DNA of 64,000 bases. Source: Candidatus Palauibacter sp. (lineage in GTDB: Bacteria; Gemmatimonadota; Gemmatimonadetes; Palauibacterales; Palauibacteraceae). The stretch is taken from assembly GCF_965221685.1 (NCBI RefSeq), contig NZ_OZ244907.1; one strand, written 5' to 3'. The translations under genes were made by a program, and so were the position numbers. The notes under the pieces were generated by a model that saw nothing but the letters and a program-made list of their open reading frames with translations, had not been told where the DNA came from and searched no databases. Below are positions 14,392 through 38,212 of the stretch, one piece after another (position 1 is the first letter of the stretch; every line of letters begins with the position of its first letter).

Positions 14392-14633
14392 GAGCGGAGG
14401 TCGGCCGTCGTCTCCTCGACCTCCGCCGCCGTCAACACCGGACGGCCCTCGCGCGGCACCGCGACCACGGCAGCGCCACGCCGTTCGAGTGAGACGTCCA
14501 GCGGTACCGGCTCAATCTCGACGCGGCCGTCCCGAACCCGGAACCGGACGCGGGTTCCGGGACGCAGCCGGCTCGCTTCCCGAACCGCCTTGGGCACAAC
14601 CAAGCGGCCGGCCTTATCGATGGTAGTTTCCAT
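14388..14633 (-). CDS. AbrB/MazE/SpoVT-family antitoxin paired with the VapC at 14017-14391
   Basis: METTIDKAGRLVVPKAVREASRL is a swapped-hairpin AbrB/SpoVT motif. 4-nt overlap with the downstream toxin. Start trimmed to the Met at 14633. Confidence 0.6.
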   Translation of the reverse strand: METTIDKAGRLVVPKAVREASRLRPGTRVRFRVRDGRVEIEPVPLDVSLERRGAAVVAVPREGRPVLTAAEVEETTADLRS

Positions 14634-14813
14634 GGTAATAATCATGCCACGTCAGGTGCCATCGATCAAGATCTCAAGGCCCGGGCTGCGCCTTCAGCCG
14701 AGTACCCGAGGCGTAATTCCGGAACTCTCACTGCGACGCGCCACTATACTATGGTCACTGCGCCTTGAGCCGGGCGCCGACACGGGACCGCATGCGGAAG
14801 GTGGGCCGACGCC

Positions 14814-19441: not shown

Positions 19442-19464
19442 GCCGGCCCGTCCGTTCACGCTGC

Positions 19465-19575
19465 CGGCGGGCTGCAAGCCGTCAGTTGACAGACGACGCT
19501 CTACCGTCGAGCCCTACAGGTTCGAGGACGGCTTTCCCTCTACACCGCCATGCGGCGGTTCGGAAGCTCCTGAGC
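19465..19575 (+). repeat. Degenerate copy of sequence found at 24287-24360 plus 24955-24995 (a HigB 3' remnant fused to the 3' end of a HicB-like gene)
   Basis: gcaagccgtcagttgacagacgacgctctaccgtcgagccctacaggttcgaggacggc parallels gcaagttgtcacttgacaggcgacgctccaccgtcgagcccttcagcttcgaggacggc. ctacaccgccatgcggcggttcggaagctcctga parallels ctacactgccatgcgacggttcggaagctcctga (encodes LYTAMRRFGSS*). Confidence 0.55.
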
Positions 19576-19657
19576 AGGACGCAACTTTCCGTCGTCCTTC
19601 GGTTGTCGACCTGTTGTCGAATGAACCGATGCAGGTCAACCAGATGGAGGTCTGTAC

Positions 19658-20356
19658 GTGCAAGCGGAAATGCAGCAGGTGAAACGGACGATCCGTTGGC
19701 TGCAGGGCTACGCCGTCCTGGCCAGCATTGCACTCGTCGTGCTGTTCGTCAGGAATGGGTCCGCGGAGGAGGATGTCCTGCGGGCGCGAGGGTTGATCAT
19801 CGAGGACGCGGCCGGCCGTGAACGGATCCTCCTCGGGGCGCCGATTCCCGAGGCGGTGAACCGCGTTCGCACCGATACGGCTCGACTGCGCGAGTTGTGG
19901 GGGGCGCAGCATCCGGACATAGAAGCGTACATGGACTCCTACGAGGAATATAACCATGGGACCAACGGGCTGGTGATCCTCAACGAGGACGGTTTTGACC
20001 GGCTTGTCCTCGGCGAAGAAACCCCCGACCCACACGTAGGCAAACGTATCGCGCCGTCCTCAGGTCTGGTGGTCCATGATCGCATCGGATTCGAACGGGG
20101 AGGGTTTGGCGTGCTTAGCCGCGAGGACAGCGATTACGTCGCTTTGGGCCTCGATTCAAGTCGCGGCGAGGCCATTTCCCTGATCGCGTTCGACGCAGGC
20201 ATGATCGGTGCCTACCTGAACGACGGGGGAGATTTCATGTTTCTCGGTAAGGGACCTGAGGGCTCCATGCCATACCACGACGAACCGTTCCTTGGTCTGA
20301 CGTTTTGGCGCGATGGAGAGGTCATTCACGATCTGAATGTCGACGAGGGCAACTGA
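19658..20356 (+). CDS. Paralog 1 of an uncharacterised 232-aa N-terminally membrane-anchored protein family
   Basis: MQAEMQQVKRTIRWLQGYAVLASIALVVLFV (TM anchor), then conserved LRARGLIIED..GRERIL.GAP.PEA.NRVRTD core shared with 20544..21242 and 22851..23549. Confidence 0.6.
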   Translation: MQAEMQQVKRTIRWLQGYAVLASIALVVLFVRNGSAEEDVLRARGLIIEDAAGRERILLGAPIPEAVNRVRTDTARLRELWGAQHPDIEAYMDSYEEYNHGTNGLVILNEDGFDRLVLGEETPDPHVGKRIAPSSGLVVHDRIGFERGGFGVLSREDSDYVALGLDSSRGEAISLIAFDAGMIGAYLNDGGDFMFLGKGPEGSMPYHDEPFLGLTFWRDGEVIHDLNVDEGN

Positions 20357-20543: not shown

Positions 20544-21242
20544 GTGACTACGGGCGCCGAACGATTGACGCGGACGATTCGTTGGCTCCAGGTCTACGCT
20601 GCATTGCTGACTATCGCAGTGGCCGTGCTCTTCGTAAGGAGCGGGACGGCTACGGACGGTGTGCTCAGAGCACGGGGGCTGATCATCGAGGACGAGGTCG
20701 GGCGCGAGAGGATTCTCATCGGCGCGCCCGTCCCCGAGGCTACCAACCGCGTACGGACTGATGAGGCTCGCGTGCGGGAGGTCTGGGCACCCCAGTTTCC
20801 CGAGGCCTACATGGATTACTACCAGGACTACAGCCACGACACCAACGGGATGCTGATCCTCAGCGAGGACGGATTCGATCGCCTCGTCGTCGGGGATCCC
20901 ACGCCCGATCCGAACATCGGCAGGCGCATCGCGCCGAGTACGGGCATGGTGATCAACGACACCGAAGGATTCGAGCGGATGGGGTACGGCGTGAAGCCCA
21001 TGGACGGCCGCTATCGCGTCAGTCTGGGCCTCGACACGGATCGCATCGAAGAGGGTCTCATATTGATGCTGGACGATGGTGGCCCACGCGGCGTTCTAGT
21101 GGGCACCGCGGGGGACAGGATCTTTCTCGGTAGCGCGCCCGCGGGACACGGGTGGACCGGCCTTGCAGAGGAATTCCAGGGACTCCTGGTCCGGCGAGAT
21201 GGCGAGACGGTGTACCAACTGAATCTGGCGGCCGGCAACTGA
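20544..21242 (+). CDS. Paralog 2 of the 232-aa membrane-anchored family
   Basis: About 85% aa identity to paralog 3, with long identical nucleotide runs (for example gggctgatcatcgaggacgaggtcgggcgcgagaggattctcatcggcgc in both). AAGGAGGA RBS. Confidence 0.65.
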   Translation: MTTGAERLTRTIRWLQVYAALLTIAVAVLFVRSGTATDGVLRARGLIIEDEVGRERILIGAPVPEATNRVRTDEARVREVWAPQFPEAYMDYYQDYSHDTNGMLILSEDGFDRLVVGDPTPDPNIGRRIAPSTGMVINDTEGFERMGYGVKPMDGRYRVSLGLDTDRIEEGLILMLDDGGPRGVLVGTAGDRIFLGSAPAGHGWTGLAEEFQGLLVRRDGETVYQLNLAAGN

Positions 21243-22850: not shown

Positions 22851-23549
22851 GTGCAAGCGGAAATGCAGCAGGTGATGCGGACGATCCGTTGGCTGCAGGG
22901 CTACGCCATCCTGGCCAGCATCGCCCTCGTCGTGCTGTTCGTCAGGAATGGGGTGGAGGAGGAGGATGTCCTGCGGGCGCGAGGGCTGATCATCGAGGAT
23001 GAGGTCGGGCGCGAGAGGATTCTCATCGGCGCTCCGGTCCCCGAGGCCGCGAACCGCGTTCGGACCGATGACGCTCGCGTGCGGGAGGTCTGGGCACCCC
23101 GGTTTCCCGAGGCGTACATGGACTACTACCAGGACTACAGCCACGACACCAACGGGATGTTGATCCTCAGCGAGGACGGATTCGATCGCCTCGTCGTCGG
23201 GGATCCCACGCCCGATCCGAACATAGGCAGGCGTATCGCGCCGGCTACCGGCATGGTGATCAACGACGACCAGGGGTTCGAGCGCTCCGGGTACGGCGTA
23301 TTGGCCGTGAATGGGGGCTATAACGTCGGTTTGGGCCTCGACACGGATCGTATCGCAGAGGGGCTCAGCCTGGTCCTGCAGGATGATGGCCCTCACGGCA
23401 TTCTGGTCGGCACGCCGGCGGACGGGATCTTTCTTGGCACCGCGCCCGCCGGACACGCCTGGACGGGCCTTGAGGAGGAATTTTCGGGGCTGCTGGCCCG
23501 GCGAGATGGCGAGATCGTGCACCAACTGAATCTCGCGGCCGGCAATTGA
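22851..23549 (+). CDS. Paralog 3 of the 232-aa membrane-anchored family (mosaic: leader and N-terminus like paralog 1, core like paralog 2)
   Basis: 5' leader gaaccgatgcaggtcaaccagatggaggt... and first about 35 codons are near-identical to paralog 1. The remainder is near-identical to paralog 2. Confidence 0.65.
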   Translation: MQAEMQQVMRTIRWLQGYAILASIALVVLFVRNGVEEEDVLRARGLIIEDEVGRERILIGAPVPEAANRVRTDDARVREVWAPRFPEAYMDYYQDYSHDTNGMLILSEDGFDRLVVGDPTPDPNIGRRIAPATGMVINDDQGFERSGYGVLAVNGGYNVGLGLDTDRIAEGLSLVLQDDGPHGILVGTPADGIFLGTAPAGHAWTGLEEEFSGLLARRDGEIVHQLNLAAGN

Positions 23550-23619
23550 GGCGGTCTGACTCACCGGCCAGCCCGTGAGCCTGCATGATGTTGTACGTCA
23601 ACCCGAAACACGGATGCCG

Positions 23620-23883
23620 CACATGCCGAACCAGCTCGTCCAGGCCCGCATCGACACAGCCGTGAAGGAGGGGGCGGCCACGGTGCTGGCGGCCATGGGC
23701 CTGACCGCCTCCGACGCCTTGCGCCTCCTTCTGATCAAGGTCGCCCAGGAGAAAGCGCTGCCGTTCGCGCCGCTGGTTCCCAACGCCGCCACGATTGAAG
23801 CGATGAGAGAGGCCCGCCGGGGCGACCTCCGGCAGGCGGCCAGCGTAGAGGACCTCTTCAACGATCTGCGCGCGGACGATTGA
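23620..23883 (+). CDS. RelB/DinJ-family antitoxin (apparently orphan)
   Basis: MPNQLVQARIDTAVKEGAATVLAAMGLTASDALRLLLIKVAQEKALPF matches DinJ. C-terminal PNAATIEAMREARRGDL...EDLF matches the DinJ tail. No RelE/YafQ ORF follows. Confidence 0.65.
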   Translation, partial: HMPNQLVQARIDTAVKEGAATVLAAMGLTASDALRLLLIKVAQEKALPFAPLVPNAATIEAMREARRGDLRQAASVEDLFNDLRADD

Positions 23884-23902
23884 GCGGACCAGGCGCGTCG
23901 GC

Positions 23903-24223
23903 TTACTGGTCGTCGGCCCCTTCGAGCTCCGCGAACAGCTCTTCCGCGCTTGCGAATCGAGCCGTTCCCTGCCTCATCATCTCCTCGCTCTCGGCCATGG
24001 CTCTACGGGTCTCAGCGTTCGGCACCTTGAGAGTGCTGCGGGCCGCCTGACGCGCGGTCGTCGTTTCGCCCTCGACGTCGGTGACGGGGTGCAACTCTCC
24101 CCGGTTGAACTTCTCCAGGATCTCCCGTTCTTCCCGGTCCAACTGATCGTTCACGGCGATTGCCTCCTCTGACGTTCCCGCGTCGCGTTCATCCGCATCT
24201 CCTTGATCTGGATCGTGATACAC
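23903..24223 (-). CDS. Putative antitoxin-like addiction-module component (acidic; DinJ-type C-terminal segment)
   Basis: LDREEREILEKFNRGELHPVTDVEGE resembles addiction-module antidote components. C-terminal VPNAETRRAMAESEEMMRQG...EELFAELE parallels the DinJ tail of the adjacent gene. No toxin partner seen. Confidence 0.35.
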   Translation of the reverse strand: MYHDPDQGDADERDAGTSEEAIAVNDQLDREEREILEKFNRGELHPVTDVEGETTTARQAARSTLKVPNAETRRAMAESEEMMRQGTARFASAEELFAELEGADDQ

Positions 24224-24286
24224 CGTGTTGGGCGGTTGTTTCCCCGTAGGCCAGGCCCCACTTGGACGCCAAACCGTCCGTTCGCG

Positions 24287-24394
24287 CCGGCGGCAGCCTG
24301 CAAGTTGTCACTTGACAGGCGACGCTCCACCGTCGAGCCCTTCAGCTTCGAGGACGGCACGGCGGCCGATGTGGACTACGTGGACTACCACTGA
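24287..24394 (+). pseudogene. Remnant of a HigB (RelE-like killer protein) toxin gene: only the C-terminal about 20 codons retained
   Basis: ...TVEPFSFEDGTAADVDYVDYH* matches the conserved HigB_toxin C-terminus (...FRWEDGDAYDVEIVDYH). Upstream part of the ORF (24203..) has no HigB similarity. Sits immediately 5' of the higA gene. Confidence 0.45.
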
Positions 24395-24409
24395 AGGGGA
24401 GGACCGACC

Positions 24410-24697
24410 ATGGCCATGCACGACCCGCCGCATCCGGGCGGCATCGTGAGGCGGCAGTGCCTTGAACCGTTGGGTCTGACCGTGACGCGGGCGGCGGAGG
24501 GCCTGGGCGTCACTCGGCAGGCGCTTTCGGAGTTGTTGAACGGGCATACCGGAGTGTCGGTCGAGATGGCGATCCGGCTGTCGAAGGCCTTCGGCTCGAC
24601 GCCCGAGACGTGGCTGGGGATGCAGATAGCGTACGATCTCTGGCAGGCGCGCGGTCACGCCCGGGAGATGACGGTGGAACGCTTTGCGGCGATCTGA
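24410..24697 (+). CDS. higA: HigA-family antitoxin (XRE-type HTH)
   Basis: HPGGIVRRQCLEPLGLTVTRAAEGLGVTRQALSELLNGHTGVSVEMAIRLSKAFGSTPETWLGMQ is the canonical HigA HTH region. Confidence 0.7.
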   Translation: MAMHDPPHPGGIVRRQCLEPLGLTVTRAAEGLGVTRQALSELLNGHTGVSVEMAIRLSKAFGSTPETWLGMQIAYDLWQARGHAREMTVERFAAI

Positions 24698-24709
24698 GGA
24701 GGATTCCTG

Positions 24710-24994
24710 ATGCGATACGCTTACCCGTGCGAACTGACGCCCGAGAAGAACGGTGGCTACTCGGTGTCCTTCCCGAATGTGCCGGAGGCGTTGACGTGCG
24801 GCGACGACCGGGACGAGGCCCTGGCGATGGCCGAGGACGCTCTGACCGTGGCGCTCGGCTCGTACATGCGGTGTCGCGAGGACATCCCGGTGCCAGACTC
24901 CGTGGCGGACCAGCAGGAGGTGGTCGCGGTTCCGCGGGTGGTTGCGGCGAAGCTCGCGCTCTACACTGCCATGCGACGGTTCGGAAGCTCCTGA
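24710..24994 (+). CDS. HicB-like (UPF0150) antitoxin-fold protein
   Basis: MRYAYPCELTPEKNGGYSVSFPNVPEALTCGDDRDEALAMAEDAL matches the HicB N-terminal RNase-H-like fold consensus (YPVILEKDEDGGYVVTFPDLPGCITQGDTLEEAL). Confidence 0.55.
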   Translation: MRYAYPCELTPEKNGGYSVSFPNVPEALTCGDDRDEALAMAEDALTVALGSYMRCREDIPVPDSVADQQEVVAVPRVVAAKLALYTAMRRFGSS

Positions 24995-25028
24995 ACCTGA
25001 ATCACCTCACGCATCGAGTCGAAGGGCC

Positions 25029-25229
25029 ATGAGCATCAAGGCGGAATACCGGGATGGAGTCTTCGCGCCCCTGCATGAGGTCGAGGAGCCCACGGCCGGA
25101 GAGGTCTACGAAGTCTTCTCCGAGGGCGAACTAAAACGGCTCGCGGCGAACCTTCCGTGGCTGAAAGACTCGGAGCGCAGCTTCGAGTTCTGGGAGAACG
25201 AGGAGGATGCCGTCTACGATAGCCTATAG
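25029..25229 (+). CDS. DUF104-type small antitoxin-like protein
   Basis: MSIKAEYRDGVFAPLHEVEEPTAGEVYEV matches the DUF104 pattern (M.I.A.YENGVLKPLE.LDL.EGE.V.V). GAAGGG RBS. Start trimmed from 24942. Confidence 0.45.
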   Translation: MSIKAEYRDGVFAPLHEVEEPTAGEVYEVFSEGELKRLAANLPWLKDSERSFEFWENEEDAVYDSL

Positions 25230-25286
25230 GCGGGACGACATCGTTCTCGTTTCCTTCCCCTTCACCGATCTCAAGGTGCCGCTGTT

Positions 25287-25601
25287 TCATGCTCCGCAGT
25301 TCCGCGCGAACCACTCGACGCCTTCGTCGCGAATATGCTCCAGCAGCGTTCTGTCGCGAACCGAGTCGTACAGGATCAGATCGACCGACTGCGCCATCGG
25401 AATCTCTTCGACCGCTGCGGCGAGACGCGCCTGGTCCGTCAACGTCAGCCGGTCACCGAACCGCGCGATGTCCACGTCGGAGGTTGTGGTGTTCGTCCCG
25501 GTCGCCCTGGATCCGAACAGGACGGCTCGTTCCACGCGGCCATTGGCCGCGATCACGGCGATGATCGCCTCGCGGTGCGCGTCCTTGAGGCCATCCGTCA
25601 T
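25287..25601 (-). CDS. Minimal nucleotidyltransferase (MNT; HI0073-like) of a HEPN/MNT toxin-antitoxin pair
   Basis: LFGSRATGTNTTTSDVDIA carries the GSx9-13DxD polymerase-beta-type NTase motif. 4-nt overlap with the upstream HEPN gene. Confidence 0.7.
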   Translation of the reverse strand: MTDGLKDAHREAIIAVIAANGRVERAVLFGSRATGTNTTTSDVDIARFGDRLTLTDQARLAAAVEEIPMAQSVDLILYDSVRDRTLLEHIRDEGVEWFARNCGA

Positions 25602-26011
25602 GGCGATCGCTTGGCGTCCAGAGTCCAGTAGAGCCGCAGCAGGACGGGGTGGTAGCGTTCCTTGATCAGCGCTTCCGCCTCCTCGGCCACATCGAGCACG
25701 TAGGCGTGGCTCAAGAGGTTGCGCTTGTCCAGCGCGTCGAGCAGGGTCTCGCAGTCGCTCTCCCCGATGTAGCCCGCCTCGAAGCTGTTGCGAATCGCCG
25801 CGCGCGGGACCTTCACGTCATGACCGTCATAGAAGAGGAGGTCCTTGAGCACCTTCCAGGACAGCTCGAAGCTGAACTCGAACGTCTTGATCAGCCCAGC
25901 CAGTTCCAGGTAGTCACACCGTTCCCTGTCGCAGGCTTTCGTGAGTTGCGCGAGCACCGTTCCGAAAGTGTCGAGCCGCTGCTGCCAGCGCCGTTCATCC
26001 GAACTGCTCAT
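25598..26011 (-). CDS. HEPN-domain protein (HI0074 / nucleotidyltransferase-substrate-binding family)
   Basis: Conserved Rx4-6H motif RNLLSHAY near the C-terminus. WQQRLDTF...ELAGLIKTFEF pattern of the HI0074 family. Start taken at the second Met (alternative 26047). Confidence 0.65.
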   Translation of the reverse strand: MSSSDERRWQQRLDTFGTVLAQLTKACDRERCDYLELAGLIKTFEFSFELSWKVLKDLLFYDGHDVKVPRAAIRNSFEAGYIGESDCETLLDALDKRNLLSHAYVLDVAEEAEALIKERYHPVLLRLYWTLDAKRSP

Positions 26012-26185
26012 CCTTCCCCGCCTCCGAATCCCGAGGCCGGACGTCATCGTTCGTCATCGCTGTAGGGCAACTCCGGGAGCCGGAGTCGTGAGATAGAATA
26101 AGCCATGTGTCCCACCGCCGTATACCTTGCCGGAGCAGGGGTGCCCAGAGTTGACCGATCGGGCCAGAGTAGCCATTGAGTCCAC

Positions 26186-26437
26186 ATGCGAGAAATCACG
26201 GCCGGAGAGGCGAAGGACCGGTTCGACCAACTGCTTCGGTCCGCCCAGCAGGGGCCCGTGCGGGTCACGCAGAACGGCACGCCGGTGGGCGTGATGCTGT
26301 CGGTGGAGCAGTTCGAACGACTGCTCGGAACTGCCCGGGACCGGTTGGCGGCCACGATGGACGCCATGAGCCGGGAGGCAGCCGCCAACGACCTGACGCC
26401 AGCGGCGCTGGAGTCCCTGCTCTCCGATGAAGGCTGA
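26186..26437 (+). CDS. Phd/YefM-family antitoxin (apparently orphan)
   Basis: MREITAGEAKDRFDQLLRSAQQGPVRVTQNGTPVGVMLSVEQFERL matches the Phd/YefM N-terminal fold. No Doc/YoeB ORF downstream. Confidence 0.7.
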   Translation: MREITAGEAKDRFDQLLRSAQQGPVRVTQNGTPVGVMLSVEQFERLLGTARDRLAATMDAMSREAAANDLTPAALESLLSDEG

Positions 26438-26445
26438 CAGGGTCG

Positions 26446-26676
26446 TTACGCTCCGCTGCGGGCGACAGCTGCGTCGGCGGCTTCGGCCACGGAGCGGTAG
26501 CCGTCCCATTGCCGATGCGCGGCCTCGTCCTCGGGGTTCGCGTCGGAAGGCACGAGATACCAGCGGTCGGCCCGGTCGGATTCCCCGTCCATGAAGTGAC
26601 CGCGCACGAGGCGATACCCGGCCATCTCGGCCCGGAACCTATGGGCGCGGATGATGACGTTTGGATCAAACCTCAT
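26446..26676 (-). CDS. Small hypothetical protein, third gene of the RelE-like/XRE operon
   Basis: MRFDPNVIIRAHRFRAEMAGYRLVRGHFMDGESDRADRWYLVPSDANPEDEAAHRQWDGYRSV. Start overlaps the stop of the XRE gene by 4 nt (26673-26676). No recognisable family. Confidence 0.35.
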   Translation of the reverse strand: MRFDPNVIIRAHRFRAEMAGYRLVRGHFMDGESDRADRWYLVPSDANPEDEAAHRQWDGYRSVAEAADAAVARSGA

Positions 26677-26957
26677 GGCGATGGCACCAGTGCATGCCTC
26701 ACTGCGTTGGGATCGTGCTTGATGATGCGCAGAAGAGCTACCGCCGGGCCGCTGACACGTCGTCTCCCCTGCTCCCACTTTCGGTAGCCGGACAGACTCA
26801 TTCCCATCAGGGCCGCCATTTGAATCTGCGTCAGCTTCGCCTCCATCCGAACCTCGCGGGGGGAGATCGGGGCGTGAACGATGGCGGGACCCTCCCCCTT
26901 GGCATGGTCCAAGGCCTCGTTCAAGGACTGGATCAGGTCTTCTCCGAACGTACTCAT
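26673..26957 (-). CDS. XRE-family HTH antitoxin (HigA-2-like) partner of the RelE-family toxin
   Basis: EDLIQSLNEALDHAKGE...KLTQIQMAALMGMSLSGYRKWEQGRRRVSGPAVALLRIIKHDPNAV matches the antitoxin family that pairs with HigB-2/RelE-like toxins. Confidence 0.65.
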   Translation of the reverse strand: MSTFGEDLIQSLNEALDHAKGEGPAIVHAPISPREVRMEAKLTQIQMAALMGMSLSGYRKWEQGRRRVSGPAVALLRIIKHDPNAVRHALVPSP

Positions 26958-27295
26958 TCCCTCCCCCGCTTTCCTTGAAGTTTGATGGCGGCTACGAGCG
27001 CAGCCACCGCTCGGCGCTCGCCAGGGTTCAGATCGGTCTTGCCGGACTTCGAGTAGGCGAGAAGCGCGTAGATTGGCATTTCCTCGCCCCCGAAGAAATA
27101 AACTACGCGGACACCACCCCGCTTACCGCGCCCGGAGGCTCCGAATCGCATCTTTCGGACCCCGCCGGTGCCGGGAATCTCGGACCCCGCCAAGGGGTGA
27201 TCGGCCAAGTAGTCGATCAGTTCGCGTCTCTCGTCCTCGTTGAACAGCTTGTCGGCCTGGCGGGAGAAGGTTGGAGTTTCGGCAACGGTCTGCAT
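26954..27295 (-). CDS. RelE/ParE-superfamily toxin (HigB-2-like)
   Basis: IPGTGGVRKMRFGASGRGKRGGVRVVYFFGGEEMPIYALLAYSKSGKTDL is the signature core of this toxin family. Start set at Met 27295 (the ORF-track start 27502 adds an Arg/Pro-rich, unlikely extension). Confidence 0.65.
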   Translation of the reverse strand: MQTVAETPTFSRQADKLFNEDERRELIDYLADHPLAGSEIPGTGGVRKMRFGASGRGKRGGVRVVYFFGGEEMPIYALLAYSKSGKTDLNPGERRAVAALVAAIKLQGKRGRE

Positions 27296-27351
27296 GGGAC
27301 CATGGTAACCCAGTGGGGTACACACGGCAATTCCGGAATGCTCGGTCACAC

Positions 27352-27888
27352 ATGCAGACCGAACCGGTCGAGGCCGCGTTCCTCGGGCCACCGGCTGAGA
27401 TGGCACGATTGCCTCCGGCGGCGATCCAGCACATCGCGGCCAGGTACGGCGGGGACTCCTCGCGCATCTGGGCCGACGGGAGCAGCGGCGCTGCCGTGGC
27501 AAGACGGTTCCTGGCTTTTGACGGTGTTGGCCGGAAGATCGCCAACATGGCCGTGAACATCCTGATTCGCGATTTCCACATCGGACTCACGACGCCCATG
27601 CCCGACATTGCGGTCGACACTCACGTGCTGCGGGTGTTCGAGCGGCTGGGCCTCCTCGACAGGCTCGAACACAGCCAGCTACGCTCGACCAGGGACAAGC
27701 AGGGACTCCGGCTCCAGCTGCGCGCTCGCGAGCTCAGCCCGGAGTGGCCGGGGGAACTCGACTGGCCGGCATGGCACCTCGGGACGAAGTGGTGTCACGC
27801 CGGGCGGGCGCCGGAGTGTGGGGAGTGCTACATGAGGGACGTGTGTCCGAGGGTTGGAGTGGGTTCGAGGTCGACGGCTGGATCGTGA
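27352..27888 (+). CDS. HhH-GPD base-excision-repair family protein with endonuclease III-type [4Fe-4S] cluster loop (short form)
   Basis: Helix-hairpin-helix FDGVGRKIANMAVNIL followed by catalytic-Asp region IAVDTHVLRVFERLGL. C-terminal CHAGRAPECGECYMRDVC is the Cx6Cx2Cx5C EndoIII cluster. N-terminal domain is shorter than canonical Nth. Confidence 0.55.
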   Translation: MQTEPVEAAFLGPPAEMARLPPAAIQHIAARYGGDSSRIWADGSSGAAVARRFLAFDGVGRKIANMAVNILIRDFHIGLTTPMPDIAVDTHVLRVFERLGLLDRLEHSQLRSTRDKQGLRLQLRARELSPEWPGELDWPAWHLGTKWCHAGRAPECGECYMRDVCPRVGVGSRSTAGS

Positions 27889-28260: not shown

Positions 28261-29787
28261 ATGTCTGACATCCCAGCAAACTCCATCCCGGCCCTGAAGG
28301 TCAACCAATGGCTATCCCACTGGGATGACATCAGTTGGAAACCGGAAGAACACCGATCAAAGCCGCCGCGGTCGTTCTATCAGTTCAACGTTTCCGCTCA
28401 CGTGCTGCGTCGCCTTAGTGGAGTCTATAGGAGAACCACCGACCGAGATCGCGGGACTTCCGATCTGGGCATTCAGCGCCGCCACGAGCCCAAACGATCC
28501 GAGGAAATCGCTCGGTTCGTCAAGTACGGATATCCCTGGTCGGTTCTCAGTGCGACTAAGCGTCAACAACCTGACTTCGCAGACTTGCGCCAACCCGGTT
28601 GGCTTCCGACAGCAATCCTCATCAACATTCTCACCGCTGACGATGAACGCCAGGGTAATGGCGTCGCAAAGGGCGATCTCGTTGAGATCCGCGAAGATGG
28701 CGATATGCACCACGTCGTTCTCCCCCACGGCCTAGATTCAGGGGACTGGGAATACAAGACCGTACCACCAATTGAAGTAATCGACGGACAGCACCGGCTT
28801 TGGGCGTTCGATGACACCGCTCTCAATGGCAGTTTTGAGCTACCTGTTGTTGCGTTCTTTGGCTTAGATCGGAGTTGGCAGGCATACCTGTTCTACACAA
28901 TCAACATAAAGCCAAAGAAGATAAATCCGAGTCTGGCTTTCGACCTCTACCCTTTGCTGCGTACTGCGACTTGGCTCGAGAAACTTGAAGGCCCCAAGGT
29001 GTACCGCGAATCGCGAGCCCAGGAGATTGTAGACATCCTATGGGCTCATCCGGAGAGCCCGTGGTATCGTCGCATCAACATGCTCGGCGAACCCGGGCAC
29101 CGGGGCTTGATGGTGACGCAGGCGGGCTGGATTAGATCTCTCCTGGCGTCCTTTGTGAAGAGGTGGGAAGCGCGCACTGCTCCGGGCGGCCTTTTCGGCA
29201 GTCCAATGGGCAGCCATGAGACGGTTCTCCCGTGGACTCTGGAGCAGCAGGCGGCCTTCCTGATCTTCCTCGGACAGCGGTTGCGTGCGACCGTCGAGGA
29301 GTCCGACGATGAATGGATGTCCGCTCTACGGCAGCGATGGTCTGATCCCGAGGACGAAGGTGATCCAGCGTTCGTTGGGCGCCACAACCTGCTAAATCAA
29401 GACCAGGGCTTACGAGCATTCCTCCAAGTGTCCAACGACGTTTGCTACGTGGCCCCAGAGCACTGGCTACAAGAAGAAGAACTTGTTTCTGTTCCGTCAG
29501 ATCCCGATGAGTCCGATGGCGTGGCCGCCGCCCTGCGACACTTTGAGAAGAACGAGCTGCTTTGCACACACATCGACGAGTTGAGTCAAACTCTCGCGGA
29601 GTTCGACTGGCGATCTTCGGATGCGTCTGACTTGACTCCAGATGAGCATCTGCGGAAGTCCGCTTTTCGGGGCAGCGGTGGATATCGCATGCTTCGCGAG
29701 GAGCTGCTTCGTCACCTCTCCGATGACGAGTCGACTGTCGGGTTGGCTGCCGAGGAGGTTCTCAGAATGCTCGGTGTGGCCGAATGA
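28261..29787 (+). CDS. DGQHR-domain protein (DndB/DpdB-like, ParB/Srx-fold)
   Basis: Exact DGQHR motif in PIEVIDGQHRLWAFDD. 508 aa. Lower-GC gene preceded by an AT-rich intergenic region. First gene of a 3-gene operon (ATGA overlap with the next gene at 29784-29787). Confidence 0.8.
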   Translation: MSDIPANSIPALKVNQWLSHWDDISWKPEEHRSKPPRSFYQFNVSAHVLRRLSGVYRRTTDRDRGTSDLGIQRRHEPKRSEEIARFVKYGYPWSVLSATKRQQPDFADLRQPGWLPTAILINILTADDERQGNGVAKGDLVEIREDGDMHHVVLPHGLDSGDWEYKTVPPIEVIDGQHRLWAFDDTALNGSFELPVVAFFGLDRSWQAYLFYTINIKPKKINPSLAFDLYPLLRTATWLEKLEGPKVYRESRAQEIVDILWAHPESPWYRRINMLGEPGHRGLMVTQAGWIRSLLASFVKRWEARTAPGGLFGSPMGSHETVLPWTLEQQAAFLIFLGQRLRATVEESDDEWMSALRQRWSDPEDEGDPAFVGRHNLLNQDQGLRAFLQVSNDVCYVAPEHWLQEEELVSVPSDPDESDGVAAALRHFEKNELLCTHIDELSQTLAEFDWRSSDASDLTPDEHLRKSAFRGSGGYRMLREELLRHLSDDESTVGLAAEEVLRMLGVAE

Positions 29788-31085
29788 CACCAGTAAATGT
29801 CGGCTCGGCGGATCGACGTTTGGTGCGGGCCGCGATGGAGCGTCTGACGCCGCACCTTGCGGCCGGACAGGGGTTGCCTCCGGGCCACCGCTACGCCGAT
29901 GGCAGGCCCGGGCGCCAGCCGGTCAATGACTCGGCGCTGGCCGAATACATCGCTCTGTCCGCAGTTCAGCATGCGTTCGACGGGTGGGCGTACTGGGGAC
30001 GAGCGGTTGCCGCGGAGATCAGCGGAGATTCCAACGTCGCGAGCCATCTGGGGTACTACGCAGAGCTTCGCGCCGCCAAGGCGATCCTAGCTTCCGAGGG
30101 CATTGGGTTGTTCGCCAACCAAGTGGCTGTCGTGCACGGCAATGGTCGGTGCGTCCTGGAAACAGGGCAAGGCAGTTCTCATAAGGTGCTGTGGGAAGCT
30201 CTCGAGGAATGGAGCAAAGGCAAGGCCCAGGGCATTGTCTTTCGTCTCTTGGGGCCGTTTGGCCACTCGATTTCGGATTGGCTCCAGCACTTTTCCAGAT
30301 CTTCCAACGCGGTCGCTGAAGACTGGTTGCGTGCGTGGGGTCTGGACTTGCAGGAGTTGGCGAAAGGCGAGAGCGGCCGACGCAACGTAGCCAGCTACGA
30401 GCCCAGCGGGTGTCCTCAAACCGAAAGGGAGCAATCGGAGAAGGCGCTCGACCACATCACGAGGTTGTGGCGATCATGCCAGCCGACGGGCACGGGGGTT
30501 AATCTCGCCTTGGACAGGCTGGTCCTTCGGGCTACGCTGGAATCCGTTTTTCAAGCTGGCGATGCTGAGGAGCGATCTGCCAGCGAAGCGCGTGACCAGT
30601 ACTGCGCGAAGGTGCGCCATACGGTGGAGTCTCTCTCCTTGGGACAATCGATCGGCCAGGCAATCCTCAGATTCCTTGATCCGCAGGAGATTCCGGAAGG
30701 CATGGACATCTTCGAGATCGCTAAACGGACGAGCGACGCGCGTACCAGGACGCATGTGACCGAGGTGCTTTCTCGAGCGGTGCTGCTTCTCCGGCTGGCT
30801 ACCGCATGTGCGCATGACTTGCTGGGCGAACTCGGCACCGACCCAAGGGCCGCCACCCAGCACTGGTGGGAGAGTCGACACGTTCGACGTGGCCTTTGGC
30901 CCGTTGGCCATACCTTGGATTCGTTCTCAGACCTCTGGGACGAGGCGGACGAAGCGCTTGACACTTTGGCAAACCAGCCCAATGGAGGGTCTACGTTCGG
31001 ACTTCGGAGCTCGGATTGCGCCAGTTCGGTAGCGACACTTGCGACGGCCGAGCGGATCTTTTTCTGGGGTAGCTTTGCAGCATGA
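29784..31085 (+). CDS. Hypothetical 433-aa protein with no recognisable domain, middle gene of the DGQHR-MTase operon
   Basis: Continuous ORF with coding-like composition. Translationally coupled at both ends (ATGA overlaps at 29784-29787 and 31082-31085). No motifs recognised by eye. Confidence 0.55.
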   Translation: MTPVNVGSADRRLVRAAMERLTPHLAAGQGLPPGHRYADGRPGRQPVNDSALAEYIALSAVQHAFDGWAYWGRAVAAEISGDSNVASHLGYYAELRAAKAILASEGIGLFANQVAVVHGNGRCVLETGQGSSHKVLWEALEEWSKGKAQGIVFRLLGPFGHSISDWLQHFSRSSNAVAEDWLRAWGLDLQELAKGESGRRNVASYEPSGCPQTEREQSEKALDHITRLWRSCQPTGTGVNLALDRLVLRATLESVFQAGDAEERSASEARDQYCAKVRHTVESLSLGQSIGQAILRFLDPQEIPEGMDIFEIAKRTSDARTRTHVTEVLSRAVLLLRLATACAHDLLGELGTDPRAATQHWWESRHVRRGLWPVGHTLDSFSDLWDEADEALDTLANQPNGGSTFGLRSSDCASSVATLATAERIFFWGSFAA

Positions 31086-32233
31086 CGCTACGGAGCATGA
31101 AGTACATGGGCTCCAAGCGAGTGATGCTTGCCAACGGCCTAGGTGACGTGTTGGCCGAGGAGTCGAAGTCGGCAGCTCGGTTTGTCGATCTCTTCTGTGG
31201 TACCGGAGTCGTATCGTGGTTCATGGCGACGAGGAGCGAACTCCCCGTACTGTCCTGCGATCTGCAGAGTTTTGCGACGACCATGGCGGCATCGGTTGTC
31301 AAACGTACGGACAATAGCGGACTGGATCAGGAGATCGATTCTTGGCTGCGTCGTGTCCGTGAAACCCGGGAGGAACGGCCTGGTTGGTCGGAGGCCGCGG
31401 AGCTGGATGGTTCCAAGGTGCCGATTGCCGTTTGGTGGAAGGAGGCCCGCGAGCTATGCGGTGAGGCGGGGTCCGAGGGATGTGGCCTAGTGTGGCGCAA
31501 CTACGGCGGTCATTACTTCAGCCCTACTCAAGCGGCATCCCTGGACGCAATGATGGAGACTTTGCCAGCCGAGGGGAGGGCAAGGGACGTTTGTTTGGCG
31601 GCGACCATAACGACCGCCAGCCAATGTGCGGCGGCGCCGGGCCACACAGCCCAACCCTTCAAGGCCACAACCACCGCTGGGCCCTACCTGCGTGAGGCGT
31701 GGTGCAGGGATCCCCTCTCCCGCGTTCGCGAAGCAGCGGAGATTCTAGTTTCCATGTGCGCGCTTCGGCGAGGAGACACGAAGACGGGCGACGCCAATGA
31801 GATCGCGCGCGAGGTCACGGAAGAGGACCTGGTCTTCGTCGATCCGCCGTACTCCGATGTTCAATACAGCCGGTTCTACCACGTCCTCGAAACGATCGCA
31901 CGTGGCGAGTGCGGCGTGGTGTCCGGTGTCGGAAGGTACCCTCCCTTCACCGAGAGGCCCGCCTCGGACTACAGTCGGGTCAAGGCTTCTGCCACGGCGA
32001 TGGCGAATCTTCTGGAGATTCTTGCCAGCACGGGTGCCGCAGTAGTGGTCACTTTCCCGGAGCAGCAGTGCAGCAACGGCCTCTCTGGGCTGCGCATCGA
32101 GGAAATGGCCAAGCAGCACTTCCAAGTGGTAAAGCGAACGGTTACGTCGAGGTTCAGCACACTGGGTGGCAACACCCGGAATCGGGACGCACGCAGCATC
32201 CGAAACGAACTGATTCTTGTGATGAGGACGTGA
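31082..32233 (+). CDS. Dam-like D12-class N6-adenine DNA methyltransferase (extended, 383 aa)
   Basis: N-terminal KYMGSKR (Dam motif I, Y-x-GSK) and VFVDPPYSDVQYSRFYH (motif IV DPPY). About 100 aa longer than E. coli Dam. Confidence 0.8.
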   Translation: MTLRSMKYMGSKRVMLANGLGDVLAEESKSAARFVDLFCGTGVVSWFMATRSELPVLSCDLQSFATTMAASVVKRTDNSGLDQEIDSWLRRVRETREERPGWSEAAELDGSKVPIAVWWKEARELCGEAGSEGCGLVWRNYGGHYFSPTQAASLDAMMETLPAEGRARDVCLAATITTASQCAAAPGHTAQPFKATTTAGPYLREAWCRDPLSRVREAAEILVSMCALRRGDTKTGDANEIAREVTEEDLVFVDPPYSDVQYSRFYHVLETIARGECGVVSGVGRYPPFTERPASDYSRVKASATAMANLLEILASTGAAVVVTFPEQQCSNGLSGLRIEEMAKQHFQVVKRTVTSRFSTLGGNTRNRDARSIRNELILVMRT

Positions 32234-32427: not shown

Positions 32428-35205
32428 ATGCGCTTGTCGTGGAACGAGGTGCGCGTGCGCGCCGCGAAGTTCGCTGAGGAATGGCGGGACGCGGCATACG
32501 AGAAGGGCGAGACGCAGAGCTTCTACAACGAGTTCTTCGAGGTGTTCGACGTGCGCCGTCGATCCGTCGCACGCTACGAGGAGCACGTTGCCAAGCTCGA
32601 CGACCGTTCGGGCTTCATCGATTTGTTCTGGCCGGGCGTGCTGATCGTCGAGCAGAAGAGCGCCGGTCGCGATCTCGCTAAAGCGTATGGGCAAGCCGGG
32701 GATTATTTCGACGCGCTGCCAGAACGCGACCGCCCTCGCTACATCCTGGTGAGCGATTTCCAGACCTTCGAGCTTCACGACCTCTCCGAGCGGCGGAAGC
32801 TGGCCTTCCCTCTCGCCGAACTGCCCGCCCATGTCGAGGCGTTCGGCTTCATCCTCGGCGTTCAGCGCCGGACGTTTCGGGACCAAGATCCGGCGAACGT
32901 CGAGGCCGCCGAACTGGTTGGACGCCTCCACGATGCGCTCGAAGCCGCAGGCTACCGAGGCCACGACCTGGAGCGGTTCCTGGTGCGCATTGTCTTCTGC
33001 CTCTTCGCCGACGATACGGGCGTCTTCGAGCCGCGCGACATCCTGTTCGACTTCCTGGAGTCACGCACGCGCGAGGACGGGACCGACCTCGGGGCGATGC
33101 TTGCCCAACTCTTCCAAGTCCTCGATACGCCGGAAGAGGACCGAACGGCGACACTCGATGAGGATTTGGCCCGGTTTCCGTACGTCAATGGCGACCTGTT
33201 CGACGGGCCGCTGCGTATTCCGGCGTTCGACGCGTCCATGCGGGAAAAGCTCCTCGACGCATCCCGGTTCGACTGGTCCAACATCTCGCCTGCCATCTTC
33301 GGAGCGCTCTTTCAGTCGGTCATGGATCCGGCGGAGCGGCGGGCCCAGGGGGCGCACTACACCACCGAAAAGAACATCCTCAAGGTGATCGAGCCGCTGT
33401 TCCTCGATGACTTGCGGGCTGAGTTCGAGCGCCTGAAGCGCCGCAAGGACAGCCGTCGTCGTGCCGATCTGCGACGCTTTCAGGAGAAGCTTGGCAGCAT
33501 GACGTTCTTCGATCCGGCATGCGGGTGTGGCAACTTCCTCATCATCGCCTATCGTGAGCTACGGGAACTGGAGATCGAAGTCCTCAAGGAGATCCATCCC
33601 GACAAACAGCTCGACGTCTTGGCGGAGACGCTGTCGGGCGTGGATGTGGACCAGTTCTACGGAATCGAGTTGGGCGAGTTCCCGGCCCGCATCGCCGAAA
33701 CGGCGCTGTGGATGATGGACCACATCATGAACAACCGGCTGAGTTTGGAGTTCGGTGAGACATACGCCCGAATTCCTCTCACGTCCTCACCCCATATCAC
33801 TCACGGCGACGCGCTGGAGATGGATTGGGCCGAGTTGTTGCCCCGGGAGGAGTGCTCCTTCGTGTTCGGTAATCCGCCGTTCGGGGGCGCGAAGTTCCAG
33901 AGTTCGGCCCAGCGCGCGCAGGTCCAGAGAATCGCCAACCTTGGCGGGACGGGAGGTACGCTCGACTACGTGACCGCGTGGTTCATCAAAGCTGGGGAAT
34001 ACGCGCGTGGAACCCGGATCCGGATCGGATTCGTTGCGACCAATTCTATCACTCAAGGAGAGCAGGTGGCCCAGCTCTGGCCGATTCTCTTCAACCGCTG
34101 CGGGCTCGCGATCGCCTTCGCGCACCGGACTTTTGCGTGGGGCTCGGACGCGCGCGGAAGGGCCCATGTGCATGTGGTCATCATCGGGCTGGACGGCCAG
34201 CACGCAGTGCCGTCGGTGAAGCGGCTGTTCAGCTATCCGGACATCAACGGCGAGCCGGAGGAAACCGAACACGAGGTGCTTTCGCCGTACCTGTTCGACG
34301 CCAGCGGTCTCGCCGACCCCCACCTGACGGTTCGGGAGGAGAGCGCTCCGGTGAACGGGTTGCCGAGGCTAATCATCGGGTCCAAGCCGATCGATGGTGG
34401 CCACTACATCTTCAGAACGGCAGAGAAACGCGCCGAGTTCGTCGCGGCGGAACCGGCGGCGGAGCCGTATGTGCGCCCCTACATCGGCGCGCGCGAATAC
34501 TTGCAGGGTGGCGGCAGGTGGATTCTCGCCTTGCACGATGTCCCGCCGAACGTCTTAGCGGGGATGCCGGTCGCGCGGGAACGGATCGTGGCGGTGCGTG
34601 CGCACCGCGAGGCCAGCCGGAGTGCGTCTACGAGGAGGCTGGCGGAGACCCCCACTCTCTATCATGTCAACGTCATCCCAGACGCGCCCTTCCTCGTCGT
34701 CCCCGAGGTAAGTTCGTAGCGGCGGGAGTACGTTCCGATTGGCTGGCTCGAACCCCCTGTGATCCCGAGCAATAAGCTTCGATTACTCGCCGACGCGAAC
34801 CTCTCGCATTTCGCTGTTCTTACGTCCGCCATGCACATGGCGTGGCTGCGCTACGTGGGTGGGCGCTTGGAGAGCCGCTACAGTTACGGGATCGGCATGG
34901 TATACAACACCTTTCCGATGCCCCCCGCCACATCTGATGTCTCGAAGCTGGAATCCTTAGCTAAGGCCGTAATCGACACTCGCGCCGCCTATCCTGACGC
35001 GACGCTGGCGGATCTCTACGACCCGGACTTGATGCCGCCCGACCTACGCCGCGCACACCAAGCGATTGACCGCGCCGTGGATCGGCTCTATCGCCGGACG
35101 GGATTCGCCTCGGAGCGTGAACGCGCCGAGCATCTCTTCATGCTGTACGAGAAGATGAGCGCTCCCCTAGGCATCGGGATCAAGAAACCGAAGCGTCGGC
35201 GATGA
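32428..35205 (+). pseudogene. MmeI-family Type IIL (Type IIG-like) restriction-modification enzyme gene interrupted by a single in-frame TAG at 34717-34719
   Basis: N-terminus MRLSWNEVRVRAAKFAEEWRD...GFIDLFWPGVLIVEQKSAGRDLAKAYGQAGDYF parallels the MmeI N-terminus. MTase motif I FFDPACGCGNFL and motif IV NPPFGG. C-terminal ORF (34759-35205) ...HMAWLRYVGGRLESRYSYGIGMVYNTFP parallels the MmeI C-terminal domain. Both ORFs share one frame separated only by TAG (…VPEVSS*RREYVPIGW…). Combined length about 925 aa. Confidence 0.75.
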
Positions 35206-35533: not shown

Positions 35534-37339
35534 ATGAAGATGACCGAACAGACTAACCGCTCTACGTTCGCCAATGCGCAGATAGAATACGAAGGGTCGT
35601 TCGCGACGCCGCAGCGTAACGTGGTCCAGACCATCTACGTCGACTTGACCGGCAAGCTTTCACGCGAAGCGCTATGCCTAGCCAAGGTCTCCGAGCCCCA
35701 GTTCGAGCTCAGAACGGCGGACACAACTCGTCTCTCGCGGCCAGGCGTCTTCCGGAAGACGGGCGAAGTACTCATTAAGGACGAACAGGAGGGGCGCGCT
35801 CAGACATCGACACGCGAAACGATTGAGGGTCCGACAAGCGCGACAACGGAGTTGGACCGGCGCGTGCGTGCGATCAACGCTGGTCTCCGGCTGTCTGACA
35901 CAAAGCTGACTGTGCGCAGCAGTAGGAGGCAGCAGACGAGGCATACGTCCACGTCAGCATTGACGTTTGGTAAGGACTGGCTCATCTACTGCACTTCGCT
36001 CTGGCCGGCAGCTGACGAAAAGGACGCTTGGCACCGCGCGTTCCCCGGAAACTACACGAGCGTGGTTCGCATCCATCGGCCCACGCAGTTCGCGCAGGCC
36101 TTAGGGTTGGGGGTGTGCGAGCATATCGGCGCGAACGGGAAGCCGTCCTCAATGAAGGCGACCTTTCACGGATTTCAGACAGTCGAGGTGCAGCGCGCAA
36201 TGCAGATCGTGCTGCACGGCCCTGTCCTTTACGTCGACGACCCCTATCGCTGCATCGACGAGGCTGACGACGGATGGGCAAAGACCTGTTCGATGATCTT
36301 CGTGAAGTCGTCCGAATACGCGGCGCAGAAGGAGTACCGATTCGCCATGTTGTCGATCTCCCCGGACGTGGGAGAGGTGTTCGACCTGCCCGTCTCGGGG
36401 ATGCTCAGGGACTGCCTGTTGCCGGTGAACGTACCGCTTGGCGCGGCCAACGGCCCTGTGACGCTGGCCTGCGACGAACGGGAACCCGGCGAGCCGCGCG
36501 AGACGCACCGGGGGTACACTTACCGGCGACGCCGGGTGCGGCGGGAGAGCGGGAGCTGGAGCGATGGCGAGCCGGGCGACGAACGGGCCAGGGAAGAGAT
36601 CATCGAGGAGACAGTAACGTCACCGGAAGAGATCCCGGAGCCATTTCCCGAGGAGGCGGAGCAACCCGACATCATCATGTTTGAGTTGGTCGGGGGTCAA
36701 CTGCGTTTCAATCACCGTGTCTACCGGGACGAAGAGACGCACCGCATACGCATCGAGACGCTGCCGATGAATCCGGTGATCATCGACAATCCAAGTCCGG
36801 GCGGTCTGCCGCACGGACTCGAGGTATCGCCGGAGGACCGATTCGAAGCGCTGGACGGAGGGCCAACGGATCCGAGAATCGTGCTCAACTTATTCATTAA
36901 CCCGAGCACACCGAGGCCGCCGGGGCGCTACGAGGTCCTCGAGCAGTGCAGCCGGTCCGACTTGGAACACGCTTTGGCGTGTTGGCGCTCCCTAGGAGCG
37001 GCGGTGAACCTGCTCGAACACGAGGACCGGGAACGGGCGGCGGCGGCGGCCTGGTACGCTGCCGAGTTCATTGTGGACTTGGTGAGCCAGTTCGGACCCA
37101 TCGTTAAGAGCGTATGCGTGATCCGGGAGTGTGTTGTGGTCGTAGAATTCGAGCGCGCGCCGATTTCTGCGGCTGTAGGTTGGGCGACGTTTTCCGGGAC
37201 CGAGACATACACTCTGTGCATACAGCAGGAGAACGTAGAAGAGATCGTGTACCCCTGTCGCGGGCGAATTGGACGGATGAGACCAAGCATCTACGCGGAA
37301 ACCTTGAAGAAGTATGGCTGGCCACCCAAGACACCTTGA
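35534..37339 (+). CDS. Hypothetical 601-aa protein, no recognisable domain; last gene of the island before the tRNA array
   Basis: Long ORF with lower GC than flanks. No nucleotide-binding, nuclease or integrase motifs recognised by eye. Confidence 0.5.
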   Translation: MKMTEQTNRSTFANAQIEYEGSFATPQRNVVQTIYVDLTGKLSREALCLAKVSEPQFELRTADTTRLSRPGVFRKTGEVLIKDEQEGRAQTSTRETIEGPTSATTELDRRVRAINAGLRLSDTKLTVRSSRRQQTRHTSTSALTFGKDWLIYCTSLWPAADEKDAWHRAFPGNYTSVVRIHRPTQFAQALGLGVCEHIGANGKPSSMKATFHGFQTVEVQRAMQIVLHGPVLYVDDPYRCIDEADDGWAKTCSMIFVKSSEYAAQKEYRFAMLSISPDVGEVFDLPVSGMLRDCLLPVNVPLGAANGPVTLACDEREPGEPRETHRGYTYRRRRVRRESGSWSDGEPGDERAREEIIEETVTSPEEIPEPFPEEAEQPDIIMFELVGGQLRFNHRVYRDEETHRIRIETLPMNPVIIDNPSPGGLPHGLEVSPEDRFEALDGGPTDPRIVLNLFINPSTPRPPGRYEVLEQCSRSDLEHALACWRSLGAAVNLLEHEDRERAAAAAWYAAEFIVDLVSQFGPIVKSVCVIRECVVVVEFERAPISAAVGWATFSGTETYTLCIQQENVEEIVYPCRGRIGRMRPSIYAETLKKYGWPPKTP

Positions 37340-37571: not shown

Positions 37572-37670
37572 GCTACGACCGCCTTCGGCGGCCCGCGTAA
37601 TCCGGGGGGTGACCTTGGCAGCCCGGGCGGGCGGAACAGTACGCCGAACCTGTTGCCCGGGGAATTTTAG

Positions 37671-37744
37671 TCGGGGCGCCCGGATTTGAACCGGGGACCT
37701 CTGCGTCCCGAACGCAGCGCTCTACCGGACTGAGCCACGCCCCG
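37671..37744 (-). tRNA. tRNA-Pro (anticodon CGG)
   Basis: RC: CGGGGCG/TG/GCTC-AGTCCGGTA-GAGC/G/CTGCG-TTCGGGA-CGCAG/AGGTC/CCCGG-TTCAAAT-CCGGG/CGCCCCG/A. 74 nt. Confidence 0.85.
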
Positions 37745-37818
37745 AGGGGTACTGCGGACCGCGCGTGAAGGCGCGGGGCCGGGGTCGCGCTCGCAAACGG
37801 AGCGGCGAACCGGCTGAG

Positions 37819-38183: not shown

Positions 38184-38212
38184 TCGCTCGACTCCCTCTT
38201 GTCCTCTGGGGA

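Follow-up and report, generated by a model that had tools for sequence, protein, structure and literature searches.

A probable turnover hot spot of toxin-antitoxin modules, rich in orphan antitoxins, at the edge of a defence island in Candidatus Palauibacter

Orphan antitoxins are abundant in Klebsiella pneumoniae, with a median of nine per strain, many of them in the context of valid pairs, and degradation, anti-addiction or cross-interaction have been suggested as explanations (PMC7192599). The subject of this work is a 3.7-kb stretch (23575-27300) on contig NZ_OZ244907.1 of a Candidatus Palauibacter sp. (assembly GCF_965221685.1), which contains six genes of antitoxin type that lack a working toxin and two intact toxin-antitoxin (TA) pairs, HEPN/MNT and RelE-like/XRE; it was studied within a sequence of 64,000 nucleotides (nt), here called the window. 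Compared with the K. pneumoniae orphans, these six are packed into 3.7 kb, the stubs of three lost toxin genes could be mapped to the codon, and one toxin gene, encoding a PIN protein, was deleted independently across sister species.

Four other described systems have features in common with this locus. Defence islands are reportedly enriched in TA and abortive-infection genes, according to Makarova and colleagues, and sedentary chromosomal integrons, such as the Vibrio superintegron, carry TA cassettes. The chromosomal ccd of Erwinia chrysanthemi is said to protect against the ccd of the F plasmid, as reported by Saavedra De Bast in 2008, and Leplae in 2011 reportedly described antitoxins as modular, mix-and-match proteins made of a DNA-binding domain and a toxin-binding tail. 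The Palauibacter stretch is probably a hot spot of TA-module turnover at the edge of a defence island, where modules undergo a birth-and-death process in which the toxin is lost first, and where at least one orphan, HigA, has been co-opted.

The genes named in a preliminary description of the stretch were found in place, and most pass their family models in hidden Markov model (HMM) annotation; that description had counted five or six antitoxins without toxins, and six were counted here. The eight modules in 3.7 kb contrast with two TA pairs in the other 60 kb of the window, so the clustering is not due to chance. Six-frame Pfam scans of 23401-27420 revealed no hidden toxin domain besides HEPN and RelE-like. 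Toxin pseudogene fragments were recognised by tblastn with intact relatives only, which placed stubs of HigB, PemK and PIN in the expected positions; HMM scans of the stubs gave no match, and phmmer against PDB with the HigB and MazF stubs gave nothing at E-values (E) up to 10. A search with a flanking 232-amino-acid (aa) protein returned seven loci, all in metagenome-assembled genomes (MAGs) of Gemmatimonadota (Candidatus Palauibacter or Longimicrobiales), among them those of a near relative, L002 (93% protein identity), and of L003, the complete chromosome NZ_OZ253465 (90%).

The orphan HigA antitoxin (95 aa; 24410-24697, + strand) is intact and matches TIGR02607 with an E of 3e-32 (110.2 bits, cut-off 47.7). 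An intact HigB (PF05015, ~92 aa) is missing directly upstream of it, where 17 codons are left: the intact HigB proteins of L001 and L031 matched positions 24341-24391 by tblastn with 71-82% identity (14-17 of 17 residues, E 2e-5 to 4e-6), and the remnant, composed of the last 17 codons and the stop, spans 24341-24394 (+). The earlier call of a HigB remnant next to an intact HigA was therefore correct. An intact HigB encoded beside HigA on a Desulfosarcina plasmid matches the same positions (FSFEDGTAADVDYVDYH, E 2e-5). The closest intact HigBA found was that of L031, with a HigA 91% identical to that of the window and a HigB matching PF05015 at E 5e-19, and the DNA similarity of the window to this locus starts exactly at 24341.

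A leftover higBA promoter/operator motif, CTGCAAGTTGTCACTTGACAGGCGAC (24296-24325, +), is joined almost directly to HigB codon 79. The same motif, TTGTCA-N17-TAGAAT, lies directly before an intact HigB in six loci (L032, L034, L037, L038, L045 and L049). Because the motif adjoins an intact gene in these loci and a stub in the window, codons 1 to about 78 of HigB were excised between the promoter/operator and codon 79. HigB was full in 50, partial or disrupted in 11 and absent in nine of the 70 metagenomic loci that had a related HigA and sufficient upstream sequence. In a comparison of six genomes the stub measured 17 codons in the window, ~8 in L005, four in L007 and one or two in L004, and the ribosome-binding site and start of HigA remained unchanged while the stub shrank.

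The second stub follows a 66-aa antitoxin gene (25029-25229, +), which had been described as a DUF104 antitoxin lacking a PIN partner. This assignment was not upheld: the protein is weakly AF2212/DUF104-like (PF01954 E 0.02), with a match that spans 17 residues and scores 15.8 bits under a cut-off of 21.6. It belongs to a widespread 66-aa family, whose member P0203 (79% identical) is followed by a 116-aa PemK (PF02452), with a 23-nt overlap, in 10 of 10 metagenome places. PIN was ruled out as its partner, given that the family partner is PemK and that the AF2212-like model stays under its cut-off. In the window, an open reading frame (ORF) at 25207 overlaps the 66-aa gene by the same 23 nt and corresponds to the first 22 of the 116 codons of PemK/MazF (25207-25272, +), being cut by the 3' end of the MNT gene. 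The PemK of L019 matched this stub by tblastn with 19 of 22 residues identical (E 2e-7), and the fragment also matches the N-termini of plasmid PemK/MazF genes. In L002 and L003 the stub retains 28-29 codons. Searches of plasmids by tblastn with the acidic protein described below and the 66-aa antitoxin gave no match.

The third stub belongs to a Phd/YefM orphan antitoxin (26186-26437, +; PF02604 E 3e-12, 46.8 bits against a cut-off of 29.8; TIGR01552 44 bits, cut-off 20.8). Its orphan status stands, whereas Doc, previously named as the absent partner, was ruled out, since L003 carries a PIN gene in this position. The L003 gene is intact (158 aa; PF13470 E 6e-18, TIGR00305 E 1e-22) and its start overlaps the Phd stop. 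Alignment to it identified the first seven codons (MKADRVV) in the window at 26427-26447 (+), after which the sequence jumps to the stop codon of a 76-aa gene, a deletion of ~470 bp relative to L003. About 20 codons of PIN are left in L002, with a breakpoint that differs from that of the window, indicating that PIN loss is recurrent.

The comparison with sister genomes, which found intact Phd-PIN and RelB-YafQ in L003, also showed that the modules themselves are exchanged. To the right of the PemK stub lie HEPN/MNT in the window, a second HigA-like gene plus a DUF433 fragment in L002, and an unrelated 120-aa gene in L003. Upstream of the 76-aa gene, RelE/XRE is present in the window and L002, and an intact RelB-YafQ in L003. 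From one genome to another, equivalent slots are filled by HEPN/MNT, RelE/XRE or RelB-YafQ. A deletion common to L002 and L003 has joined HigA to the C-terminal half of the 66-aa gene, with a 7-bp microhomology (GCGGCGA) at the joint. A second, further decayed copy of the locus was detected in the window through direct repeats D5 and D7, as a 139-bp scar (19448-19586, +) directly after a 1238-aa gene, which matches 24274-24358 (86%) and 24952-25007 (80%). This scar retains the higBA promoter motif and the first part of the HigB stub, which run straight into the last codons of the truncated HicB; the remainder of the stub has been deleted together with HigA and the greater part of HicB, and no convincing microhomology was found at the junction.

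The other three orphans are HicB, DinJ and an acidic protein. HicB (94 aa; 24710-24994, +) lacks HicA, as had been stated, with no such domain in the six-frame scan and a 12-nt gap between HigA and HicB, but it is not an intact antitoxin: PF15919 matches (E 6e-9) at profile positions 1-66 of 123, the N-terminal half. The same truncation was found in L007. A frame-shifted remnant of the C-terminal helix-turn-helix tail persists at 24976-25016 (+), as shown by blastn to L005 (14082-14123; 90% DNA identity, E 8e-8), which retains the tail; by tblastn the match is weak, with 9 of 13 residues (E 0.09). The RelB/DinJ antitoxin (86 aa; 23623-23883, +) matches TIGR02384 (E 1e-19, 70.4 bits, cut-off 45.65) and PF04221 (E 4e-19); its ORF opens at GTG 23575, and the likely start is ATG 23623. 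It was confirmed to be without a toxin: downstream, where the convergent acidic gene is 19 nt away, there is neither a toxin gene nor a remnant of one, and the window lacks any YafQ-like stretch (best E 0.15).

The acidic gene (23903-24154, -) most likely starts at GTG 24154, although its ORF extends to 24223, and its database homologues are called as 83 aa. The view of it as an antitoxin-like gene without a toxin holds for the missing toxin and not for an intact antitoxin, as the product matches no family model and is a chimera. Its N-terminal 43 aa share 65% identity with the N-terminus of P0119, a CopG-type antitoxin (E 1e-12), and its C-terminal 37-40 aa share 86% identity with the tail of RelB93, a 93-aa RelB that pairs with YafQ (TIGR02385 E 2e-20). 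By analogy with E. coli DinJ-YafQ, this tail is presumably the toxin-binding part. Both parental DNA-binding domains are missing.

Many small chimeric ORFs with the ~40-aa RelB tail (KVPNAETRRAMAE…FAELE) occur in Palauibacter metagenomes (P0011-P0018, P0118, and L002 at 11849-12178), where the tail, sometimes present twice, is joined to a CopG-type N-terminus, an XRE-antitoxin N-terminus, DUF433 or a VapB tail. The RelB93-YafQ loci (L009-L018) adjoin a sulfate transporter gene and all encode an identical antitoxin protein. Gene-call tables had suggested that YafQ was absent in six of these 10 places, which was rejected on reading the DNA: the toxin is intact in seven, and broken in L012, L013 and L017 by three different lesions. 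Several intact YafQ genes with GTG starts had been missed by the gene callers.

Selection on the orphans was assessed with Nei-Gojobori estimates of the ratio of nonsynonymous to synonymous substitution rates (dN/dS), from 15-30 substitutions per pair. HigA, with values of 0.03-0.32 in 15 pairs from six genomes, all without HigB, is under purifying selection and strongly constrained. The flanking HhH-GPD gene has the same dS as HigA (0.34, L003 vs L007), indicating vertical descent of HigA and not recent transfer. The N-terminal domain of HicB (0.22, window vs L007) and the 83-aa chimera (0.35 for the 106-codon ORF that contains it, window vs L003) are probably also kept under purifying selection. 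In contrast, Phd, with values of 0.73-1.3 among the window, L002 and L003, drifts neutrally with no detectable constraint. Values of 0.40 for DinJ (window vs L002) and 0.20-0.36 for the 76-aa gene (window, L002 and L003) were obtained, and XRE showed zero nonsynonymous and seven synonymous changes (window vs L002).

The earlier proposal that toxin genes were selectively lost and antitoxins kept is thus borne out in part. Loss is documented for three modules by the remnants, the intact relatives and the independent PIN breakpoints; selective keeping, read from the selection contrasts, applies to HigA, the HicB N-terminal domain and the acidic gene, and fails for the neutral Phd, the truncated HicB, the fusions of the sister genomes and the second copy, which has no HigA.

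In the scheme that we favour, modules would arrive and be swapped at the left edge of the island, between the array of 232-aa protein genes and the tRNAs. Toxin genes would then disappear, either through small deletions or when the next module comes in. A cell that loses the toxin would survive, while loss of the antitoxin first would be lethal, so that orphan antitoxins would accumulate as decay intermediates. Their fates would diverge afterwards, being co-opted (HigA), drifting (Phd), broken or fused (HicB, and the HigA::66-aa fusion of the sisters) or vanished (the 19.4-kb scar). The kept HigA, HicB N-terminal domain and chimera would presumably be regulators or spare neutralisers. We infer this order of loss, as we would any present function of the orphans. 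Survivorship of this kind is the simpler cause for most of the pattern.

Several points weigh against this scheme. For DinJ, the 83-aa chimera and HicB, no trace of a toxin gene was detected, and their histories would have to be read by analogy with the other modules. No recombinase, attachment site or boundary repeat that could explain module arrival was found in 19-28 kb. The retained higBA promoter carries CACCGT in the -10 position and looks degenerate there, which leaves the expression of HigA unproven. The substitution counts behind the dN/dS values are small, although the contrast between HigA and Phd is clear despite this. The RelB93 loci were looked up by the exact antitoxin sequence, an approach that is blind to alleles with a broken antitoxin, so that these loci do not by themselves establish an asymmetry of loss. 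Finally, the visible sequence is 64 kb of a genome, and partner toxins may be encoded elsewhere in it.

In a different and rather doubtful reading, the orphans would be retained mainly for neutralising toxins that come from other parts of the genome or arrive with mobile elements or phages, with the chimera acting as a sponge for YafQ that does not bind DNA. The conservation of HigA, with a dN/dS of about 0.1 across six genomes without HigB, is consistent with it, as are the dN/dS values of the HicB N-terminal domain and the chimera, and many ORFs of Palauibacter metagenomes bear the RelB tail. The identity of the chimera tail to the RelB tail that binds YafQ, both being within 3 kb in L003, would be a hint of the cross-regulation or anti-addiction proposed earlier, and the long-term constraint on HigA could be a second lead. 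A bank of antitoxins has also been raised as an idea for orphan antitoxins in the literature (PMC7192599). However, the window shows no toxins that would match, a plain regulator role would explain the purifying selection on HigA just as well, and the evidence is drawn from sequence and not from function or expression. The neutral Phd, the loss of the DNA-binding part of HicB, the fusion ORFs of the sister genomes and the deletion of HigA in the second copy argue against retention as well. It is likewise improbable that the stretch is a dedicated locus for anti-addiction or anti-TA immunity, in which HigA would have been kept beyond the divergence of several Palauibacter species and the chimera would neutralise YafQ or HigB in trans.

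Toxins that are present but overlooked, as small or non-canonical ORFs or as members of new families, are a very improbable explanation, for which one candidate would be the 76-aa gene (26446-26676, -). This ORF is conserved, belongs to no family (none of its 17 lineage-restricted homologues has a Pfam match) and, in several contexts, is coupled to small genes that lie upstream of it; its ATG shares bases with the XRE stop (ATGA), and the gene lies downstream of RelE/XRE in the window and of RelB-YafQ in L003. Gene callers also missed intact YafQ genes in related loci, so small toxins are easily overlooked. Nevertheless, the six-frame scans gave HEPN and RelE-like only, in agreement with the toxin-less state described before, and the gaps of 19 nt after DinJ, 12 nt before HicB and 8 nt after Phd are too short to contain a gene. 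The real partners were located where the stubs of HigB, PemK and PIN now lie, and the 76-aa gene of L003 adjoins complete pairs to which it does not belong. As a side observation, the gene is translationally coupled, through 4-nt overlaps, to different small genes according to context. Mis-joining of repeated TA genes during assembly or binning is hardly credible: all the relatives are MAGs and repeated TA-tail segments could confuse assemblers, but the same junctions (HigB stub, PemK stub, Phd promoter edge and RelE/HhH-GPD joint) recur in independent assemblies with 88-95% identity, including the complete chromosome NZ_OZ253465.

Two modules of the stretch remain complete. The HEPN/MNT pair, reported as intact, matched both models: an HI0074-type HEPN toxin (25598-26047, -; PF08780 E 3e-25, TIGR01987 63.9 bits, cut-off 55.8), with a likely start at ATG 26011, overlaps by 4 nt an MNT nucleotidyltransferase antitoxin (25287-25601, -; PF18765 E 4e-14), which scores 43.7 bits with the MntA model, under the cut-off of 60. 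Putative catalytic motifs were found in the translations, KRNLLSH in HEPN (Rx4-6H) and FGSRATGTNTTTSDVDIA in MNT (GSx10DxD). In the second pair, the XRE/NadS-like antitoxin (26673-26957, -) passes HTH_3 (E 4e-8) and stays under the cut-off of the NadS model (E 2.5e-9), while the 113-aa RelE-like toxin of the PF06296 type (26954-27295, -; E 1.3e-5), whose gene overlaps that of XRE by 4 nt, scores 25.8 bits, 1.2 under the gathering cut-off of 27. The call of an intact RelE-like/XRE pair was hence supported on the antitoxin side and fell just short of the model on the toxin side.

The right edge of the TA stretch is an HhH-GPD glycosylase gene (27352-27888, +), which alignment to the L003 protein showed to be 5'-truncated: it corresponds to residues 115-276 of 276 with 91% identity, the first 114 codons being gone. 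The gene is full length in L003 (276 aa) and L007 (269 aa) and similarly truncated in L002, with a 178-aa ORF, so that truncation is found only where RelE/XRE abuts, in the window and L002. A dN/dS of 0.73 (L002 vs L003) suggests decay of this gene. Its new in-frame ATG comes from sequence that arrived with the RelE/XRE module.

The left landmark of the stretch, in a window with a G+C content of ~67%, is an array of three tandem genes for 232-aa membrane proteins (19658-20356, 20544-21242 and 22851-23549). These paralogues have a single N-terminal hydrophobic segment and no Pfam or NCBIfam match, and copies B and C share 88% DNA identity; in sister genomes the copies are also in tandem and the TA cluster always begins directly after the last one. 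The right landmark is a stretch of lower G+C (0.56-0.64) at 28-38 kb, which ends at a cluster of six tRNAs (37670-38378, -) and contains DGQHR/DndB-like, D12 methyltransferase and MmeI-type IIG restriction-modification genes. Since these defence genes occupy the sequence to its right, up to the tRNAs, the TA cluster forms the left margin of a defence island of variable content. A repeat search of 19-38.5 kb did not detect any copy of the 3' end of tRNA-Pro marking the far edge of the island. An Rfam scan of 19-28.5 kb gave no match, and the promoter and terminator scan was at background level.

Within the island, three genes with 4-nt overlaps (28261-32233) encode a DGQHR/DndB-like protein (508 aa), a 433-aa protein with no family match and a D12-class adenine methyltransferase (383 aa), and may constitute an uncharacterised modification-based defence system. 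The MmeI-type IIG gene is split by one in-frame stop (…PEVSS*RREYVPIG…) into 32428-34719 and 34759-35205 and is probably a recent pseudogene. A 601-aa ORF (35534-37339) without a Pfam, NCBIfam or PADLOC match adjoins the tRNA cluster. In L003 (17090-17587) and L007 (17595-18095), a TIR-like gene, recognised by eye from its FFSFHY motif, directly follows HhH-GPD, in the place taken by the DGQHR set in the window, indicating that island content is swapped between species. The two TA pairs outside the cluster (10937-11589 and 14017-14645, -) are of the VapBC type and apparently intact, with 4-nt overlaps in each; they are composed of a 77-aa gene plus PIN, and of an AbrB/MazE-type gene plus PIN. 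The C-terminal tail of the AbrB antitoxin (AVVAVPREGRPVLTAAEVEE…) recurs inside chimeric ORFs elsewhere.

The origin of orphan antitoxins is usually guessed, and here the steps of decay are readable from the DNA, with stubs mapped to the codon. The locus is a well-resolved case of a known decay pattern and not a new type of system; it offers a concrete instance in which toxin-first decay can be tested, from a marine lineage that has not been cultured, and its orphan HigA and 83-aa chimera are two candidate trans-acting neutralisers.

Among known systems, defence islands resemble the locus in that its TA modules lie in a variable region next to tRNAs and adjoin genes for restriction-modification and other defence functions. 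Unlike them, most of its modules are dead or half-dead and the IIG gene carries an in-frame stop, so that the island looks like an eroding one and not an active arsenal. Small TA modules set densely side by side, with a content that varies between close relatives, also recall integron arrays. An integron was rejected because the modules have mixed orientations and because a repeat search and ORF inspection, made with no dedicated attC model, found no repeated attC-like element between modules and no integrase among the ORFs examined; the module boundaries are deletions and truncations, and not recombination sites. As with the Erwinia ccd, an antitoxin encoded on the chromosome could counteract a related toxin that enters the cell, although that system is a complete pair for which cross-neutralisation was tested, and the antitoxins of the window are solitary and known from their sequences. 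The RelB/DinJ tail, found on several unrelated N-terminal parts, follows the pattern of modular antitoxins. The 83-aa chimera departs from that pattern by joining two parts that do not bind DNA, and some of its relatives carry two tails.

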